Shown here one piece after another: positions 4,430 through 21,708 of a stretch of DNA of 55,971 bases. Source of the DNA: a virus. Numbering within the stretch: the first letter of the stretch is position 1; every line of letters starts with the position of its first letter. The notes beneath the pieces were generated by a model. The model was given only the letters and a program-made list of their open reading frames with translations, was not told where the DNA came from and searched no databases. The stretch is from the IMG/VR virus record IMGVR_UViG_3300045988_144994. One strand, written 5' to 3'. The position numbers and the translations under genes were made by a program.

Positions 4430-4502
4430 GCCTACTTAGCTCAGTTGGTAGAGCATCGGTTTTGTACTCCGAAGGTCATCCGTTCGAACCGGATAGTAGG
4501 CT
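4430..4502 (+). tRNA. tRNA-Thr (anticodon UGU)
   Basis: 73 nt. Acceptor gcctact/agtaggc (7/7 pairs), D arm gctc-agttggta-gagc, anticodon arm tcggt-tttgtac-tccga (one U.U pair), V loop aggtc, T arm atccg-ttcgaac-cggat. Confidence 0.85.
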
Positions 4503-4606
4503 CAAAAAGTAATTGATTAATAATAAATTGAAGAAAAATGTTGCGGAATTTAGAAAATATTTGGTCGGAAAGCTTGGTTAATTCAGAGGAATTTGCCATG
4601 TTTGCA

Positions 4607-4793
4607 GTGCCAAATCATATTACCGTTGGTTCTTTGTGTAGTAAAGAATCATTAATTCCGTATAACAGCGGGGTTTCTCTGACATATACAGTTTTACAAC
4701 GGTATAGTGATTTGGCGATCAGGAGAGGCTCCGCTTCTTCTTTTGTAAAGAAAATATTATTAATCAAATTTTTAGTTGTCAAATGCCAAATCA
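4607..4793 (+). promoter_or_regulatory. Leader element E0: start-mimic / anti-start / start triad
   Basis: gccaaatca (4609-4617) pairs with tgatttggc (4708-4716), and accgttg (4622-4628) pairs with caacggt (4697-4703). The sequence tgccaaatca recurs at the start codon (ATG 4783, copy 4784-4793). Confidence 0.5.
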
Positions 4794-5073
4794 CGCTAAA
4801 AAATTTGAAGCAGAAACCACAGGTGTATCTACTTCACAGCCTAAAAAGACAGTATCTAAACTGGAAAAAGAAATCATCTCTATCCAGAAGAAAGTATCCA
4901 AGCTACAAGAGGAATGCAGACACGAACGAAATGAAAAGTATCGCCTGCTGTGCTACATTAACAGGTATTGTTCAGCACTGTTCCCTTACTTCGACAGAAG
5001 TAACCCGGTTGATTCCAAAAACTGGGAAAAGGTACACCGCCTCCAGCTGGATCTGGATAAGGAAATAAAGTAA
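4783..5073 (+). CDS. Small coiled-coil protein
   Basis: 96-aa ORF. It is preferred over the overlapping 4538..5068 ORF, whose product looks non-protein-like. It resembles the 13705 ORF in layout (MP.. N-terminus, coiled coil, Cys/Tyr-rich tail). Confidence 0.6.
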   Translation: MPNHAKKFEAETTGVSTSQPKKTVSKLEKEIISIQKKVSKLQEECRHERNEKYRLLCYINRYCSALFPYFDRSNPVDSKNWEKVHRLQLDLDKEIK

Positions 5074-9273: not shown

Positions 9274-9401
9274 GGATATGTAGCTCAACGGTAGAGCGAC
9301 AGCAAGGAACGGCAGCGCATATAATTGTCACCACAGAAGCGCGGAGTGGCAAGCCTAATCCCCTCGACAGTAGGATGATTGTTCGAATCAATCCATATCC
9401 C
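9274..9401 (+). ncRNA. Oversized tRNA-like RNA B (128 nt): canonical acceptor, D and T arms, with 78 nt in place of the anticodon arm and variable loop
   Basis: Acceptor ggatatg/catatcc (7/7 pairs), ta, D arm gctc-aacggta-gagc, T arm gattg-ttcgaat-caatc, discriminator c. I could not find a 5-bp/7-nt anticodon stem-loop in 9298-9376. Confidence 0.5.
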
Positions 9402-12350: not shown

Positions 12351-12740
12351 ATGGAAAAAATCACAGACAAAATTAAATCCTTCGAGGATGCTTGCAAGCA
12401 TCTCGGACTTAACCCTAACGACCTGCCGGTTGTAGATATGCTACCCGAAAAAGATAGAAAATCAATTATTGCATACTACAAGCTGACAATCATTACAAGG
12501 GCACTAAATGAAGGATGGGAACCGGACTTCTCCAACTGGAATGAATACAAGTACTACAATTGGTTTTACGTTGAAGAAAACAAAGACCAGCGTTCCTCGG
12601 GTTTTCGTTGCGACGGTACGGGCTACGCGTGTGCGGACGCGTATGTCGGCTCTCGGCTTTGCTTTAAAAACAGAGAACTGGCTAAATACGCCACAGAACA
12701 ATTCAAAGAACTATACCGTGAATATTTACTTATTCTTTAA
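12351..12740 (+). CDS. Hypothetical protein, paralog 1 of a tandem pair
   Basis: The C-terminus SSGFRCDGTGYACADAYVGSRLCFKN...EQFKELYREY parallels that of the next gene. Confidence 0.6.
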   Translation: MEKITDKIKSFEDACKHLGLNPNDLPVVDMLPEKDRKSIIAYYKLTIITRALNEGWEPDFSNWNEYKYYNWFYVEENKDQRSSGFRCDGTGYACADAYVGSRLCFKNRELAKYATEQFKELYREYLLIL

Positions 12741-12750
12741 AAGAAAAAAC

Positions 12751-13224
12751 ATGGAAAAGACATTAAAGATTACAGAAGAACAAGCCAAAGAGCTTTATCA
12801 GGAAGTATCTCCTAAATTTAAGGAGATACTTGAATTAAACTTTGGCAAGGGTACATTCTTGAAAAACTTTCAAGATACCGTGAAGACCTACGAGGATGCT
12901 TGTGCAATTATTGGTGAAAAGCCGATAGATGAAGAAAATCTGCTAAGTTCAGGGCTTGACAAATCGGATATTGCTTTCATGAAGTTAAAGGCAATATACA
13001 AAGCCGCAAACAAGATGAATAGAAACTGGAAAGCGGATTTTTCCGATTCAAATCAACATAAATATTACCCGTATTTTGTTTGGCGTTCCTCGGGTTTTCG
13101 TTACGTCGTTACGGACTACGCGGTTACGTGCACGAATTTCGGCTCTCGGCTTTGCTGTGGAAATTCGGACGATGCAGAATACATCGGGAAACAATTTGAA
13201 GACTTGTACAACGATTATTTTTGA
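12751..13224 (+). CDS. Hypothetical protein, paralog 2 of a tandem pair
   Basis: Start set at the internal ATG (MEKTLKITEEQ). The C-terminus reads SSGFRYVVTDYAVTCTNFGSRLCCGN...KQFEDLYNDY. Confidence 0.6.
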   Translation: MEKTLKITEEQAKELYQEVSPKFKEILELNFGKGTFLKNFQDTVKTYEDACAIIGEKPIDEENLLSSGLDKSDIAFMKLKAIYKAANKMNRNWKADFSDSNQHKYYPYFVWRSSGFRYVVTDYAVTCTNFGSRLCCGNSDDAEYIGKQFEDLYNDYF

Positions 13225-13251: not shown

Positions 13252-13464
13252 ATGAGCAATAATTTATTCACACCAGAAGACAGCGAGCGGATAGAATTAC
13301 TCTGTCAGCTTAATCGCTTAGAGGCTCCCGTAGAAAAGTTACGGGAGCTTGTTGTTTATACAGAAAAATATAACCGCAAAAAGGAAAGGGAGGAGGGAAA
13401 GAAACAACATCCTGAACGGTTTCCCCGGGGTTCCATTCCCCGGCAGGGACAAATCTTACATTAA
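13252..13464 (+). CDS. Hypothetical small protein
   Basis: 70-aa ORF. Confidence 0.45.
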   Translation: MSNNLFTPEDSERIELLCQLNRLEAPVEKLRELVVYTEKYNRKKEREEGKKQHPERFPRGSIPRQGQILH

Positions 13465-13507
13465 ATTTTGCAATTATGGATAATAGCCGTATATTTGTGG
13501 TGTTCAA

Positions 13508-13717
13508 CTGCCAAGACGAACAACATAAATTACGTTAGAAGGGTGTTTTTATGCCCTATTATTTCTTGAATTTTCAAGTAAAATATAGGCCGTCGAAATT
13601 CCTTCGTTGCATAGCCCTTCATCGTAAGTGTTATGTTCGTCTTGGCAGATAACGGGAAAGTCGGCGGCTTTCTTATTTTTATTAACTTATAATTCATCAA
13701 CGTAATGCCAAGACGAA
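13508..13717 (+). promoter_or_regulatory. Leader element E1: start-mimic / anti-start / start triad
   Basis: ctgccaagacgaaca (13508-13522) pairs with tgttcgtcttggcag (13634-13648). Inner helices are ttacg/cgtaa and gaaggg/cccttc. A small hairpin gaaag-tcggcgg-ctttc plus a T-rich run lies at 13656-13683. tgccaagacgaa recurs at ATG 13705 (copy 13706-13717). Confidence 0.5.
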
Positions 13718-13998
13718 GTGAATCTGTAAGTAATGTGAATCATAGTACCATTACAGCACGTCCACCCCGACGAAACGAGGGTAAATTACTTTCCGAAGTA
13801 AAAGAGTTGCAACAACAACTAATCCAAGTAAGACAAAAATTAGAGATCGAAAAGAACTGCAAGAATCAGGCGTATTACTTTATTCTCAGTTCCGGCAACT
13901 TCAGAAAGTTTGCTGAGTTCCACAAAACGCATAAGGCAAGCCTTGATTATCACGGAGCTTGCATGGCGCAGCTTTATCTTGATTCGTTTGAAAAATAA
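13705..13998 (+). CDS. Small coiled-coil protein
   Basis: 97-aa ORF. Its layout is similar to the 4783 ORF. Confidence 0.6.
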   Translation: MPRRSESVSNVNHSTITARPPRRNEGKLLSEVKELQQQLIQVRQKLEIEKNCKNQAYYFILSSGNFRKFAEFHKTHKASLDYHGACMAQLYLDSFEK

Positions 13999-14013: not shown

Positions 14014-14727
14014 ATGGAAGAATTGATTATTACTTCTAACGATGGTAGAATGTCATCGTTAGAAATTGCACAGATTACCGAAAGAGAACACAAAGATGTC
14101 ATGCGTTCAATTCGAAACATGGAAGAATCTTGGTTAAAAATAGCCGGGCGCAATTTTGCGCTGGGCACGTATAAAGATGCTAATAAGCAAGATAGACCAT
14201 GCTATTATCTGACAAAAACCGAATGTTTATATGTCGCAACAAAATTCAATGACGAAGCAAGGGCTAAATTGGTTTTACGTTGGGAACAATTAGAAATAGA
14301 AAAGCGAACAGAACAAAGCAATCTTTCCCCGGCTGAAATGCTTCTCAAACAATGTCAGATCATGGTAGAACATGAAAAGAGATTGTCAACCGTTGAGCAG
14401 AAAGTTAATGAGGTATTAGCTATTCGGGAAGAAGCGCAGAAAGACATGTTATCACTCCCTCTTTCTACTGATGCTGTTCCTGAATTAAGCATGAGAGATA
14501 AAGTCCTTGCTTTGGTAAACAAATATTCCATGCACTTCAATGTTCCTCAAAAGAATGTGTGGGACCATATTTACCAAACCCTTTATTACAATTATCATAT
14601 TGCACTGCGTTCCTACGCCAGAAAGAAAAATGAGAGTCTTATTGATGTAGCTGAACGTGTAGGCGCATTGGATAAAATGTACGCAATTATTTCAAACCTA
14701 TCAAGGCAAAACGGATTAGTAGCATAA
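14014..14727 (+). CDS. Rha-family phage regulatory protein
   Basis: The N-terminus ITSNDGRMSSLEIAQITEREHKDVMRSIRNM is typical of the Rha family. Confidence 0.7.
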   Translation: MEELIITSNDGRMSSLEIAQITEREHKDVMRSIRNMEESWLKIAGRNFALGTYKDANKQDRPCYYLTKTECLYVATKFNDEARAKLVLRWEQLEIEKRTEQSNLSPAEMLLKQCQIMVEHEKRLSTVEQKVNEVLAIREEAQKDMLSLPLSTDAVPELSMRDKVLALVNKYSMHFNVPQKNVWDHIYQTLYYNYHIALRSYARKKNESLIDVAERVGALDKMYAIISNLSRQNGLVA

Positions 14728-20362: not shown

Positions 20363-20505
20363 ACAAAGATCTAACAAACAAAATCCTGCCTTATTGCGGG
20401 CATGGTCTGAAAGTGATATATGAAGATTATTTGTGTTGAATCGTTAAAAAATAATCCCTATGCAGAATGATTTTGATTTGTCGGAAAAATGCCGTATGTT
20501 TGTAG

Positions 20506-20704
20506 TGTCTATCATACTAAGAGGGCGGTAAGTCCGCCAAAACTGCGGGCATTTTTTATGCCTTAAATCGATATACGGTTTCATTACCCCCGTGTGGAGT
20601 GTTAATGCACCCACAGCCCTCTTAGGTGATAGACAGCGGGAAAGGATGGAACCGTTTTTTATTTCTATCCAAACATATCAAATTCTTAGGGATAATGTCT
20701 ATCA
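20506..20704 (+). promoter_or_regulatory. Leader element E2: start-mimic / anti-start / start triad
   Basis: tgtctatca (20506-20514) pairs with tgatagaca (20627-20635), and taagaggg (20518-20525) pairs with ccctctta (20617-20624). A T6 run lies at 20655-20660. tgtctatca recurs at ATG 20695 (copy 20696-20704). Confidence 0.5.
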
Positions 20705-20988
20705 CGGAAAAGAATTTGCTAACATCGGTACAAGGTATTGATGAAGCACGTTATGCCCACGAAACGGCTAAAACTACTGTAACTATTCCTTCAATCAACG
20801 TCGAAGAACTATTGGAAATCTCTTCAACACTAAGAGGCGACGAAGCAATTATCGAGGTGTCCAACCTTGTCGAATTTAATCATGATGAACCGGATCTTGA
20901 ATACGCTTTGAGGTGTGTTTGCCGGTTCTATGCGAAAGTTTCGTATCTTGTTGACAGAATGAAGCAGATATTAACCGAAGAAAAATAA
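20695..20988 (+). CDS. Hypothetical protein
   Basis: Start set at the internal ATG (MSITEKNLL). The upstream part of track ORF 20626..20988 lies in the structured leader. Confidence 0.55.
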   Translation: MSITEKNLLTSVQGIDEARYAHETAKTTVTIPSINVEELLEISSTLRGDEAIIEVSNLVEFNHDEPDLEYALRCVCRFYAKVSYLVDRMKQILTEEK

Positions 20989-20994
20989 CCTATT

Positions 20995-21708
20995 ATGAAC
21001 GAAATAATTAAAATTACTGAATCGAACGGCAAACAAGCTGTTTCGGCAAGAGAATTATATAAATTTCTTGAAGCTACCGAACGCTTTAATAATTGGTTTG
21101 AACGTCAATTACAATATGGATTTGTAGAAAACATTGACTATGTAGGGTGTAAACAATTTAACACCCTTGCAAATCAGGAACTTAATGATTACGCTTTAAC
21201 TATTAATTGCGCTAAAGAAATTTCAATGCTCCAGCGCAACGAGAAAGGCAAACAAGCACGTCAATATTTTATAGAAGCAGAAAACAAATACAGACAGTTG
21301 CAACAGACCGGAGGTTTTCAAATTCCGAAGTCTTACTCTGAAGCTCTAAAATTAGCAGCCAGCCAAGCGGAACAAATCGAACAACAGCAAAAACAAATCC
21401 AACAGCAAGCTCCGAAAGTCCTTTTTGCTGACAGTGTTTCCGCTTCTCATACCTCCATCCTTATCGGAGACCTTGCAAAGATTTTAAAACAAAATGGAGT
21501 TGAGATCGGTGCCAAAAGGCTATTTGTGTGGATGCGGAGGAATGGTTATCTGATAAAGAAACCTGGTATGAGCTATAATATGCCATCGCAAAGAGGAATG
21601 AATCTTAATTTGTTTGAAATTAAAGAAACGGTAGTGACACATTCTGACGGACACACTTCAATAAACAAAACCGTTAAAGTTACCGGAAGGGGCAAATCTA
21701 TTTTGTAA
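20995..21708 (+). CDS. Phage antirepressor (AntA-like N-terminus plus KilAC-like C-terminus)
   Basis: The N-terminus GKQAVSARELYKFLEATERFNNWFERQLQYGF is AntA/AntB-like. The C-terminus ILIGDLAKILKQNGVEIGAKRLFVWMR is KilAC-like. Confidence 0.7.
   Translation: MNEIIKITESNGKQAVSARELYKFLEATERFNNWFERQLQYGFVENIDYVGCKQFNTLANQELNDYALTINCAKEISMLQRNEKGKQARQYFIEAENKYRQLQQTGGFQIPKSYSEALKLAASQAEQIEQQQKQIQQQAPKVLFADSVSASHTSILIGDLAKILKQNGVEIGAKRLFVWMRRNGYLIKKPGMSYNMPSQRGMNLNLFEIKETVVTHSDGHTSINKTVKVTGRGKSIL

Follow-up and report, generated by a model that had tools for sequence, protein, structure and literature searches.

In the c4/icd/ant system of phages P1 and P7 (the immI operon), an antisense RNA and its target come from the same strand and the same promoter. 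The c4 antisense sequences are thought to lie in the loops of a 77-nt RNA, which RNase P processing frees from a precursor and which acts in trans, and Citron and Schuster (1990) reportedly found a second copy of the target (a1/b1) upstream of c4. For the hok-family mRNAs, Gultyaev, Franch and Gerdes (1997) are said to have traced mutually exclusive pairings (tac / fbi / ucb-dcb) through coupled covariations; there, refolding after RNA processing alters translatability.

The c4 RNA blocks the ribosome-binding region of the ant mRNA and sets P1/P7 heteroimmunity, and in phage P22 the small antisense RNA sar blocks translation initiation of the antirepressor gene ant (PMC12197685). The CI RNA of satellite phage P4 (arrangement seqA - seqB - seqC) is processed from an untranslated leader and pairs with an upstream site (seqA) and a downstream site (seqC) of its own transcript (PMC4825925). 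In the Gifsy-1 prophage one promoter gives both a short terminated RNA, IsrK, and a read-through mRNA, and the short form, by pairing with the long one, alters how a small ORF ahead of a regulator is translated (PMC4825925). Bacteroidota lack Shine-Dalgarno sequences, Hfq and ProQ (PMC7366714), and little is known about RNA regulation in this phylum or about the decision between lysogeny and lysis in the temperate phages of its gut members.

Here we describe a leader, E1, that is best read as working like c4-icd-ant and P4 CI RNA without being homologous to either. It lies in the virus record IMGVR_UViG_3300045988_144994, and "the window" below is the whole stretch of DNA analysed, 55,971 nt. 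Judged by sequence, the design of the leader is conserved across many Bacteroidota phages, with three copies (E0, E1 and E2) in this gut-bacterial prophage. The features of E1 and its operon are the following.

13467-13497, plus strand: Bacteroides-type promoter found by regular-expression match, with a -33 TTTG at 13467-13470, a 19-nt spacer and a -7 box TATATTTG at 13490-13497.
13508-13522, plus strand: long-hairpin 5' arm, which copies ("mimics") the start region, with its core at 13509-13520, and is predicted to mask the 3' arm.
13523-13633, plus strand: apical domain of the hairpin in the minimum free energy (MFE) fold, with helices 13530-13534/13623-13627 and 13538-13543/13615-13620.
13634-13648, plus strand: 3' arm, the antisense ("anti-start") segment, complementary to the 5' arm and to 13706-13717.
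13654-13685, plus strand: terminator-like stem-loop from the terminator scan, GGGAAAGUC-GGC-GGCUUUCUU and then a U-rich tract.
13686-13730, plus strand: start-display hairpin predicted by folding, stem 13686-13697/13718-13730, its loop holding AUG 13705 and the target 13706-13717.
13705-13998, plus strand: small ORF of 97 aa, putatively regulated by E1, predicted helical with a disordered, hypervariable N-terminus.
14014-14727, plus strand: Rha-family gene directly after the small ORF (Pfam Phage_pRha, 3e-19; PHROG anti-repressor families).

The two arms form a perfect 15-nt inverted repeat, CTGCCAAGACGAACA and TGTTCGTCTTGGCAG, with 111 nt between them; no other of the 25 inverted repeats listed within 400 nt in the window is perfect over 15 nt or more. 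The 12-mer TGCCAAGACGAA occurs exactly three times in the window, at 13509 (plus), 13636 (minus) and 13706 (plus), the last directly over the ATG at 13705, and by our own arithmetic about 0.007 extra exact copies would be expected by chance in 2 x 56 kb. The fold of 13465-13720 has an energy of -72.9 kcal/mol, against -51.3 +/- 4.0 in 200 shuffled sequences (z = -5.45, none as good), and contains the inner pairs UUACG/CGUAA and GAAGGG/CCCUUC. A preliminary description of this DNA had proposed exactly this pairing of 13508-13522 with 13634-13648, its inner helices, and a 5' arm that mimics the start-codon region; all of these coordinates hold, and the 12-mer recurs at 13706-13717 as the mimicry implies. 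In the apical domain the fold has a sub-hairpin with a U-rich loop at 13540-13557. Alignment and folds show that a UUUUUAU loop and GAUAUA-GGCY recur as apical motifs across the leader family. MAFFT/RNAalifold applied to the whole hairpin gave a consensus for the outer stem only, the interior aligning too poorly.

The promoter was matched to the Bacteroides-type consensus (PMC7366714). It stands directly before the hairpin, which supports the earlier description of E1 as a leader. From its position we predict a transcription start at about 13501-13505. The E1 and E2 promoters have the 18-mer GCCGTATRTTTGTRGTGT in common (0.07 matches expected by chance), and in 22 of 23 family members the -7 box ends 2-11 nt ahead of the 5' arm. 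As to a promoter in the opposite direction, the hairpins of 7 of the 23 members contain CAAAGATA, the reverse complement of the -7 box; it is never accompanied by a -33 box and does not occur in E0, E1 or E2 of the window, and an antisense promoter in the hairpin was rejected.

Behind the hairpin the terminator scan picks up GGGAAAGTCGGCGGCTTTCTT and then ATTTTTATTA, from 13654 onward, in agreement with the gaaag-tcggcgg-ctttc stem and U tract noted before. The site has the parts of an intrinsic terminator, a G+C-containing stem-loop (13654-13674) and a U tract (ATTTTTATTA). The stem folds at -7.8 kcal/mol and is conserved, with compensatory changes, in 17 leaders. Going by this sequence, it may act as a leaky intrinsic terminator, in which case a short RNA of about 175 nt would also be made. 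No antiterminator overlapping the stem was found: neither the long hairpin nor the helix between the 3' arm and the start region shares its nucleotides, and in the folds the latter helix encloses the stem without overlap. Further downstream, the core stem of the start-display hairpin, UUUCRU/AYGAAA, covaries in the 17 leaders; at one pair, for example, 7 have A-U and 6 have G-C. Folding gives the same start-display arrangement at E0 and E2, whose features are these.

4597-4794, plus strand: E0, with a -7-like box CATGTTTG at 4597-4604, 5' arm at 4607-4628 and 3' arm at 4697-4717.
ATG 4783, plus strand: start behind E0, with the copy TGCCAAATCAC at 4784-4794; small ORF 4783-5073, 96 aa.
20472-20718, plus strand: E2, with a -33 TTTG at 20472-20475, a -7 box TATGTTTG at 20495-20502, 5' arm at 20505-20524 and 3' arm at 20619-20636.
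3' part of E2, plus strand: the motif CAGCGGGAAAGG at 20634-20645, ATG 20695, the copy TGTCTATCAC at 20696-20705 and the start-display stem 20679-20687/20710-20718.
20695-21708, plus strand: E2 operon, small ORF 20695-20988 (97 aa) and an antirepressor gene with AntA and KilAC (ANT) domains, 20995-21708.

E0, E1 and E2 have the same layout and unrelated arm sequences, each arm matching its own start codon. The window copies do not cross-pair: cognate pairings have -17 to -25 kcal/mol and cross pairings -10 to -12. The stretch after the hairpin that E1 was said to share with E2 is real, and the shared promoter 18-mer comes in addition; the common ancestry proposed for these two is supported, and we extend it to E0. 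We also scanned every ATG, GTG and TTG on both strands for a start-codon 9-mer that recurs upstream in both inverted and direct form. In the window this returned only E0, E1 and E2 with their opposite-strand mirrors, plus one low-complexity match and its mirror. A stricter scan of 558 kb of related phage DNA gave matches confined to these leaders.

The small ORF behind E1 has no match in Pfam, PHROG, NCBIfam or PDB sequences, and its AlphaFold model (pLDDT 65, pTM 0.36) is too weak for a fold search. Its first ~18 residues are predicted to be disordered and are hypervariable, so that a constraint on the RNA can dominate those codons. The Rha gene is probably co-transcribed with it. In the E2 operon the antirepressor gene matches ANT at 1e-31 and AntA at 3e-23; the genes downstream of E0 gave no antirepressor domain match. 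A Rha, KilA-N, Bro-N or ANT protein follows the small ORF in 8 of 10 diverse loci, as it does at E1 and E2. Between the small ORFs of E1 and E2 no homology was found, and that between the E1 family and the E0 small ORF is borderline (hhalign probability 29%).

The covariation analysis used 23 distinct members, taken from IMG/VR contigs and from genomes of Butyricimonas, Paraprevotella, Mediterranea, Tannerella and environmental Bacteroidota; the GenBank phage collection held no near or distant DNA match. With the register picked for maximal pairing over the core, 92.6% of the cells between the 5' and 3' arms are paired and 12 of 13 pairs have changed on both sides, while between the 3' arm and the start region 90.3% are paired and 10 of 13 pairs have changed on both sides. 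The covariation score of the two arms is reached in 0 of 500 shuffles, and that of the 3' arm with the start region is 0.647 against 0.186 in shuffles, again with 0 of 500 as high, although the family sequences are mutually related and such controls therefore overstate their independence. Duplexes of the 3' arm with its cognate start region have on average -20.0 kcal/mol, compared with -12.7 for non-cognate ones, and in 17 of 27 rows no partner outranks the cognate one.

G.U pairs are about four times as frequent as A.C mismatches (20:5 in the helix with the start region, 21:6 in that of the hairpin), which indicates that selection acts on the plus-strand RNA. Further, several members have a 3'-arm G whose 5'-arm partner is U and whose start-region partner is C.

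The same pattern is seen between near-identical phages. When the window is compared with its relative L065, the rest of the small ORF is identical (279/279) and the Rha gene nearly so (689/691), while the element agrees at 10 of 15 positions in the 5' arm, 12 of 15 in the 3' arm and 12 of 15 in the start core, with coordinated substitutions. At E2, too, changes between near-identical phages are concentrated at the element. Together with the three-way covariation in the 23 relatives, this indicates that the mimic relation first noticed in E1 is under selection. Not all relatives conform: L115 and L143, which are E2-like, keep the hairpin and the post-hairpin motif and have weak or absent complementarity to the start, and some protein homologues have no leader at all.

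In the full-length RNA the hairpin state is favoured over the start-blocking pairing by 11.4 +/- 4.3 kcal/mol across the family (range 3-20). When the 5' arm is deleted, the start-blocking helix enters the MFE fold in 15 of the 23 members, and for E1 the RNA 13634-13730, which lacks this arm, has a fold of -26.8 kcal/mol (z = -3.4) in which the 3' arm pairs with the start region. The preliminary description had spoken of an equilibrium that could be shifted. As the hairpin is more stable by about 11 kcal/mol, a simple equilibrium open to shifting does not exist, and unmasking would have to be an active step.

How does this compare with the described systems? A gathering-threshold scan of the whole window against Rfam 15 returned only a tRNA, and permissive E-value scans of 13400-13800 and 20440-20760 gave chance-level matches to unrelated families; ARAGORN reported nothing relevant to the E1 element. 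Membership in the Rfam C4 family was rejected, there being no match in sequence or structure to the covariance model. The likeness to c4 is in the arrangement. In both, the target is the initiation region of a small ORF ahead of an antirepressor gene, as found for the 3' arm in the leader family, and a few covarying bases set specificity among close relatives, which in P1/P7 is the basis of heteroimmunity (PMC12197685). The differences are that E1 belongs to another phylum, that its target is the AUG and first codons whereas that of c4 is the Shine-Dalgarno region, and that one genome here has three orthogonal copies. Moreover, the E1 antisense makes up one side of a long perfect stem and is masked by the upstream copy, unlike the presumably loop-borne antisense of c4, so the analogy is functional only.

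P4 CI RNA has the same three-site geometry, and in E1 the complementarity of one segment to two sites is found together with covariation. However, the upstream site of E1 pairs intramolecularly to form a hairpin, CI RNA acts by premature transcription termination, and there is no homology; the downstream site of E1 is the start codon, which suggests translational control. As in hok, mutually exclusive pairings share one strand and show three-way covariation, but hok is a toxin mRNA with a separate antisense, Sok, from the opposite strand and with partner elements at both mRNA ends, and no toxin-like ORF is present at E1. IsrK activates translation and is unrelated in architecture and sequence, and at E1 termination and read-through are predictions. 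The sar RNA is an opposite-strand transcript with neither an upstream target copy nor a masking hairpin.

We consider it probable, at roughly 0.6, that E1, E0 and E2 are transcribed leader RNAs that mask their own antisense segment and thereby control translation initiation. From the Bacteroides-type promoter, transcription would begin a few nucleotides short of the 5' arm, and the RNA would fold into a hairpin of about 140 nt, the 3' arm of which is complementary to the next coding sequence from U(+2) through about +12 to +14. In the presumed ON state the 5' arm, being a copy of the target, would hold the 3' arm, leaving the AUG exposed in the loop of the small downstream hairpin, and ribosomes could translate the small ORF together with the antirepressor-type gene that follows. 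In the presumed OFF state the 5' arm would be removed or displaced and the 3' arm would clamp the start region, blocking initiation, either in cis on the read-through mRNA or in trans by the short RNA ending at the terminator-like stem. For the unmasking step our guess is RNA processing. The start codon and first codons are a logical site for such a block because Bacteroidota mRNAs lack Shine-Dalgarno sequences. The specificity lies in about 11-13 nt, which co-evolve at the three sites, and this allows a single phage to run three copies without interference. Most likely the leaders switch antirepressor operons on and off.

A narrower version would place the shut-off in cis only and couple it to decay: 5'-end-dependent degradation strips the 5' arm and so frees the 3' arm to close the start codon, and mRNAs that are decaying cease to be translated, with no trans-acting RNA and no role in immunity. 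The position of the 5' arm at the predicted 5' end of the transcript and the start-blocking folds of 5'-truncated RNAs fit this. However, decay-coupled shut-off needs neither orthogonal specificities nor a rapid diversification of the pairing sequences between near-identical phages, and it leaves the conserved terminator-like stem right after the antisense arm unexplained; we regard it as rather unlikely. It overlaps with the masked-antisense leader, being its cis branch, and the two are inseparable by sequence analysis.

It is quite unlikely that the leader is just a stabilising 5' hairpin with a leaky terminator, an attenuator in which the start-region copy has no pairing function and arose incidentally when cassettes recombined. 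The promoter and hairpin would then travel as a unit with the first codons, as promoter/stem-loop cassettes do in T4-type phages. A mosaic build of leaders and N-terminal coding segments is indeed visible, as in the protein P0026, where an E2-like N-terminus (MTITKKNLQTSVQG) is joined to an E1-family C-terminus; the strongly favoured hairpin state and the conserved terminator-like stem also agree with an attenuator. But one cassette does not explain three separate patches that change in concert within a 98-100% identical background, nor a 3'-arm G with U as its partner in one helix and C in the other, nor the excess of G.U over A.C. Further, a stabilising hairpin has no need of complementarity to the start codon, yet this is kept in at least 20 independent sequence versions.

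A DNA-level element is very improbable, whether an inverton with the 15-nt inverted repeat as its borders or a site of recombination or cruciform formation. The repeat is perfect, a third, direct copy lies nearby, and in the L049/L075 contig an 18-nt piece of the 5' arm is inverted in place, but the hairpin interior runs the same way in each of the 71 copies examined, and the repeats do not enclose the promoter, which lies outside them. A Bacteroidales invertible promoter was rejected on these two grounds. Moreover, G.U-type "mismatches" are tolerated and A.C ones are not, which makes sense only for RNA, and E0, E1 and E2 differ in their repeat sequences, so that one site-specific recombinase could not recognise all three.

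Translational attenuation by ribosomes that open the 5' arm while reading the 20-codon ORF 13476-13538, which was suggested earlier, is scarcely credible: the ORF exists and crosses the arm, as does some ATG-ORF in 16 of 23 relatives, but ATG 13476 lies amid the promoter boxes (between -33 and -7) and precedes the predicted transcription start, 7 of 23 relatives lack such an ORF, and starts and lengths vary, nearly all of the ATGs being inside or upstream of the -7 box. The shared reading frame R[IM]FVV is a by-product of the conserved promoter DNA. For the same reasons (absence in 7/23, unconserved position and length, location before the predicted start), leader-peptide attenuation of the ermC type was rejected.

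Returning to the masked antisense segment, a more specific form of it is possible, and we put it forward tentatively: the leaders could be a previously undescribed class of "pro-antisense" RNA in Bacteroidota temperate phages, with a decoy-masked seed, endonucleolytic release and a role in determining specificity. The long hairpin would be the precursor in which the decoy copy of the target masks the seed, and an endonuclease such as RNase III would cut the stem and free an RNA of about 45 nt made up of seed and terminator hairpin, which would shut the small-ORF/antirepressor operon both in cis and in trans. Immunity specificity would then be determined by the seed, 11-13 nt long and fast-evolving, with three orthogonal circuits per phage and near-identical phages differing almost only at seed, mask and target.

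The leader is a conserved and easily recognised RNA device in front of antirepressor-type operons, and its three-site pairing code can be read from sequence. If the masked-antisense reading is true, it offers an entry point to the induction and immunity of prophages in abundant gut bacteria, a natural case of start-codon occlusion as a regulatory target in bacteria without Shine-Dalgarno sequences, and a source of naturally orthogonal, programmable RNA switches for the engineering of Bacteroides. It would also account for the hypervariable first codons of a whole protein family, as RNA pairing and not protein function constrains them.

Close relatives carry different "specificities". At E1 two haplotypes of the arm are seen, A (CCAAGACGAA) and B (GCAAAGCGA).

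The E1 leader, which precedes ATG 13705, is one member of a conserved family of structured leader RNAs that is widespread among temperate phages of Bacteroidota. All the elements listed for it in the preliminary description were found in place, and the observation is confirmed much more strongly than a single-sequence reading could show. The two arms form a perfect 15-nt inverted repeat (CTGCCAAGACGAACA, 13508-13522, with TGTTCGTCTTGGCAG, 13634-13648) separated by 111 nt, and the inner pairs UUACG/CGUAA and GAAGGG/CCCUUC both lie within the minimum-free-energy fold of 13465-13720. The energy of this fold is -72.9 kcal/mol, compared with -51.3 +/- 4.0 for shuffled sequences (z = -5.45), and none of 200 shuffles equals it. 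A terminator scan also recovered the terminator-like stem and T-run 3' of the hairpin. The mimicry of the start region is exact: TGCCAAGACGAA, a 12-mer, has exactly three copies in the window, on the plus strand at 13509 and 13706 and inverted at 13636. When all start codons on both strands of the whole window were scanned for the combination with one direct and one inverted copy, the only matches were E1, its paralogues E0 (ATG 4783) and E2 (ATG 20695), their opposite-strand mirror images, and one low-complexity match with its mirror.

The general layout of the leaders is as follows.

Layout of the leader, 5' to 3', with E1 coordinates for the promoter and arms
Promoter (plus strand), Bacteroides-type: TTTG at 13467-13470, a 19-nt spacer and TATATTTG at 13490-13497, directly 5' of the hairpin
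5' arm (13508-13522): copy of the start region
Apical domain: about 110 nt, carrying motifs that recur, among them a sub-hairpin whose loop is U-rich
3' arm (13634-13648): complementary to both the 5' arm and the start region
Small stem-loop and U-rich tract: 2-8 nt past the 3' arm
Linker: A/U-rich
Hairpin with covarying stem UUUCRU/AYGAAA: AUG and target sequence are exposed in its loop of about 20 nt

The promoter was recognised from the published Bacteroides consensus (PMC7366714) and is the same at E2; the 18-mer GCCGTATRTTTGTRGTGT is common to E1 and E2, with a chance expectation of 0.07. In 22 of the 23 distinct family members compared, the -7 box ends 2-11 nt 5' of the 5' arm, so the hairpin would be the extreme 5' end of the transcript, as judged from the predicted transcription start. 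The terminator-like stem is kept with compensatory changes (17 leaders).

Some leaders vary in detail. At E0 (window 4597-4794) the -7 box is CATGTTTG, not TAnnTTTG, and a tRNA-Thr (TGT) gene at 4430-4503 lies about 95 nt 5' of the promoter-like box. Leaders of the E2 type (window 20634-20670; loci L093, L114, L115 and L143) have a conserved CAGCGGGAAAGG motif instead of the simple terminator-like stem, followed by a covarying hairpin with CCGUUUUUU in its loop. Examples of the stem of this hairpin are GGAUGGAA/UUUCUAUCC, GUAGCA/UGCUAC and GGUAC/GUACC, and the hairpin is overlapped by a short competing stem (CGG/CCG or CAG/CUG) that precedes a U-run.

Divergent relatives of the small ORF, the gene starting at the element's ATG, were gathered by protein-based retrieval. 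The triple arrangement recurs in them at constant spacing and with no fewer than 13 distinct core sequences: the direct copy lies about 150-197 nt (mostly about 176-197) and the centre of the inverted copy about 37-65 nt 5' of the AUG. Counted over the 23 members in a gapless register, itself fitted on the core, the helix between the two arms is paired in 92.6% of cells, with both sides changed at 12 of 13 pairs and a covariation score of 0.779 (shuffles 0.198). For the helix between the 3' arm and the start region the values are 90.3%, 10 of 13 and 0.647 (shuffles 0.186), and in both cases 0 of 500 shuffles score as high. A register-free test agrees: duplexes of start region and 3' arm average -20.0 kcal/mol for cognate and -12.7 for non-cognate partners, the cognate partner being top-ranked in 17 of 27 rows. 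There is good support for two helices that exclude each other and co-evolve; hok mRNAs are the classic example of such coupled three-way covariation.

At non-Watson-Crick positions G.U outnumbers A.C by 20:5 and 21:6, and in several members a G of the 3' arm lies opposite a U of the 5' arm and opposite a C of the start region. This puts the selection on the plus-strand RNA and not on DNA repeats. The start helix always begins at the U of the AUG and extends to about +11 to +13 (A = position 0); the A is paired with the 3' arm in no member, and the base opposite it is never U. Such an unpaired A in 23/23 would have a chance of about 0.1% if the sequences were independent, while they are in fact related.

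Orthologous copies of E1 and E2 were obtained by a promoter-pattern scan of IMG/VR, and in these the arms and the start region change in concert.

Haplotypes of E1 and E2 (5' arm; 3' arm; start region)
E1 haplotype A (window): CTGCCAAGACGAACA; TGTTCGTCTTGGCAG; ATGCCAAGACGAAG
E1 haplotype B: TTGGCAAAGCGAGCA; TGTTCGCTTTGCCAA; ATGGCAAAGCGAAG
E2 haplotype A (window): GTGTCTATCA; TGATAGACA; ATGTCTATCAC
E2 haplotype B: GTGCTTATCA; TGATAAGCA; ATGCTTATCAC

Between the window and a related phage (locus L065), identical positions at E1 number 42/43 in the promoter, 10/15 in the 5' arm, 82/111 in the apical domain, 12/15 in the 3' arm, 12/15 in the start core, 279/279 in the rest of the small ORF and 689/691 in the Rha gene; the divergence at E2 has a similar pattern. 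Joint change of three separated patches on an otherwise identical background is the signature of a specificity determinant. The window's three copies do not cross-pair (cognate -17 to -25, cross -10 to -12 kcal/mol). That the repeats are purely a by-product of recombination would leave both the G.U pattern and the concerted changes in three separated patches unexplained.

The N-termini of the small-ORF protein family are hypervariable and predicted to be disordered, and the hypervariability is explained by the joint change, in which the start core takes part. Some N-terminal segments are also exchanged between families: the related protein P0026 has an E2-like N-terminus (MTITKKNLQTSVQGVDGA, against MSITEKNLLTSVQGIDEA in the window's E2 ORF, 20695-20988) on a conserved E1-family C-terminus. 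Such a mosaic points to the leader travelling as a cassette with the first 20 or so codons.

Two rearranged copies were seen. In an E1 haplotype-B copy (L049/L075, one contig, IMGVR_UViG_3300045988_177419; equivalent to window 13503-13522) an 18-nt segment of the 5' arm, CTCAATTGGCAAAGCGAG, is inverted in place to CTCGCTTTGCCAATTGAG. The two arms then share one polarity and can no longer form the long hairpin; a natural "unmasked" mutant, a quasipalindrome template switch and an artefact of assembly are the candidate explanations. In a deletion variant (L009/L092, IMGVR_UViG_2845961267_000005) the sequence passes from within the U-rich sub-hairpin directly into the small ORF at around codon 12, and the 3' arm, terminator-like stem and start codon are missing.

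The best explanation, to which we give a probability of about 0.6, is that the leader masks an antisense segment of its own and in this way controls the translation of operons made up of the small ORF and an antirepressor gene. In the ON state the 3' arm would be held by the 5' arm and the AUG would stand in the display loop, allowing translation of the small ORF and the downstream antirepressor-type gene. In the OFF state the 5' arm would be cut away, degraded or displaced, and the freed 3' arm would pair from the U of the AUG through the three or four codons that follow. Full-length leaders prefer the hairpin to the start-blocking state by a margin of 11.4 +/- 4.3 kcal/mol (between 3.1 and 19.8), and the hairpin is the minimum-free-energy fold in 21/23 members; the AUG would thus be exposed in the default co-transcriptional state, so that a block would require an active unmasking step. 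With the 5' arm removed, the helix of 3' arm and start region is in the minimum-free-energy fold of 15/23 members, and in E1 RNA 13634-13730 the 3' arm folds onto 13706-13717 (-26.8 kcal/mol, z = -3.4).

Since a stem-loop and U tract follow a few nucleotides past the 3' arm, a processed product would be laid out like a classical bacterial small RNA, with a single-stranded seed and then a putative terminator hairpin, and it might act in cis on the read-through mRNA or in trans. Bacteroidota, which have no Shine-Dalgarno sequences and neither Hfq nor ProQ, may depend on extended seeds (PMC7366714); an 11-13-nt helix over the start codon fits this. In this picture the complementarity with its covariation, the strand, the conserved stems and the gene context are direct results, and the transcription start, termination, processing, direction of regulation and action in cis or trans are deduced from them.

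Other readings of the element were rejected. A candidate internal antisense promoter is found in 7/23 members and in 0 of the window's copies. Attenuation by the 20-codon upstream ORF (13476-13538), raised in the preliminary description, is not borne out: its ATG lies inside the promoter, and the ORF is missing in 7/23 members and not conserved. An inverton is contradicted by 0/71 inverted copies and by a promoter outside the repeats.

The closest analogue of the E1 leader is immI of P1/P7, where Citron and Schuster in 1990 reportedly described a second target copy 5' of c4. The c4 antisense RNA and its target have one promoter in common; the RNA blocks the initiation region that precedes the antirepressor gene, and it sets the heteroimmunity of P1 and P7 (PMC12197685). 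P4 CI RNA pairs on its own transcript with seqA upstream and seqC downstream, and in IsrK of Gifsy-1 one promoter gives a terminated sRNA and a read-through mRNA, which interact (PMC4825925). However, E1 belongs to neither these families nor that of hok: its antisense segment forms one side of a long stem and is not a loop, the AUG itself is targeted, and the phylum is different. No Rfam family matches the leaders, and we found no published description of the family, though human-microbiome catalogues of candidate structured RNAs (e.g. PMC8040213) might list the motif without a function.

The window comes from a Bacteroidota temperate phage or prophage, with genes for integrase, a DUF4494 protein, SNF2 and DnaB helicases and Rha/Ant proteins. 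Related loci occur in Butyricimonas, Paraprevotella, Mediterranea, Tannerella and uncultured Bacteroidota, and one named homologue of the small ORF is in Odoribacter splanchnicus. The small ORF itself (about 97 aa) has no family assignment. It is followed by a Rha protein gene at E1 and by an AntA + KilAC antirepressor gene at E2, and among diverse related loci the next gene encodes a Rha, KilA-N, Bro-N or ANT protein in 8/10; at E0 the genes that come after the small ORF match no antirepressor domain. At three related loci (L123, L136 and L147) the place right after the small ORF, taken elsewhere by the antirepressor-type gene, is occupied by an HNH/NUMOD homing-endonuclease gene.

Just 5' of E1, the plus-strand region 12351-13224 holds an internal duplication (12590-12727 and 13083-13220, 71% identical) and two overlapping ORFs (12351-12740 and 12508-13224) that both match phrog_11581; it may be a frameshifted or duplicated gene. 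A tRNA gene at 9274-9401 (plus strand), missed by ARAGORN and by the Rfam gathering scan, scores 44.6 bits with permissive filters, above the tRNA gathering score of 29. It has an intact acceptor stem (GGATATG/CATATCC), D arm and T arm and a 69-nt insertion in the anticodon-arm region, and it may be a phage tRNA that contains an intron or is interrupted in some other way.
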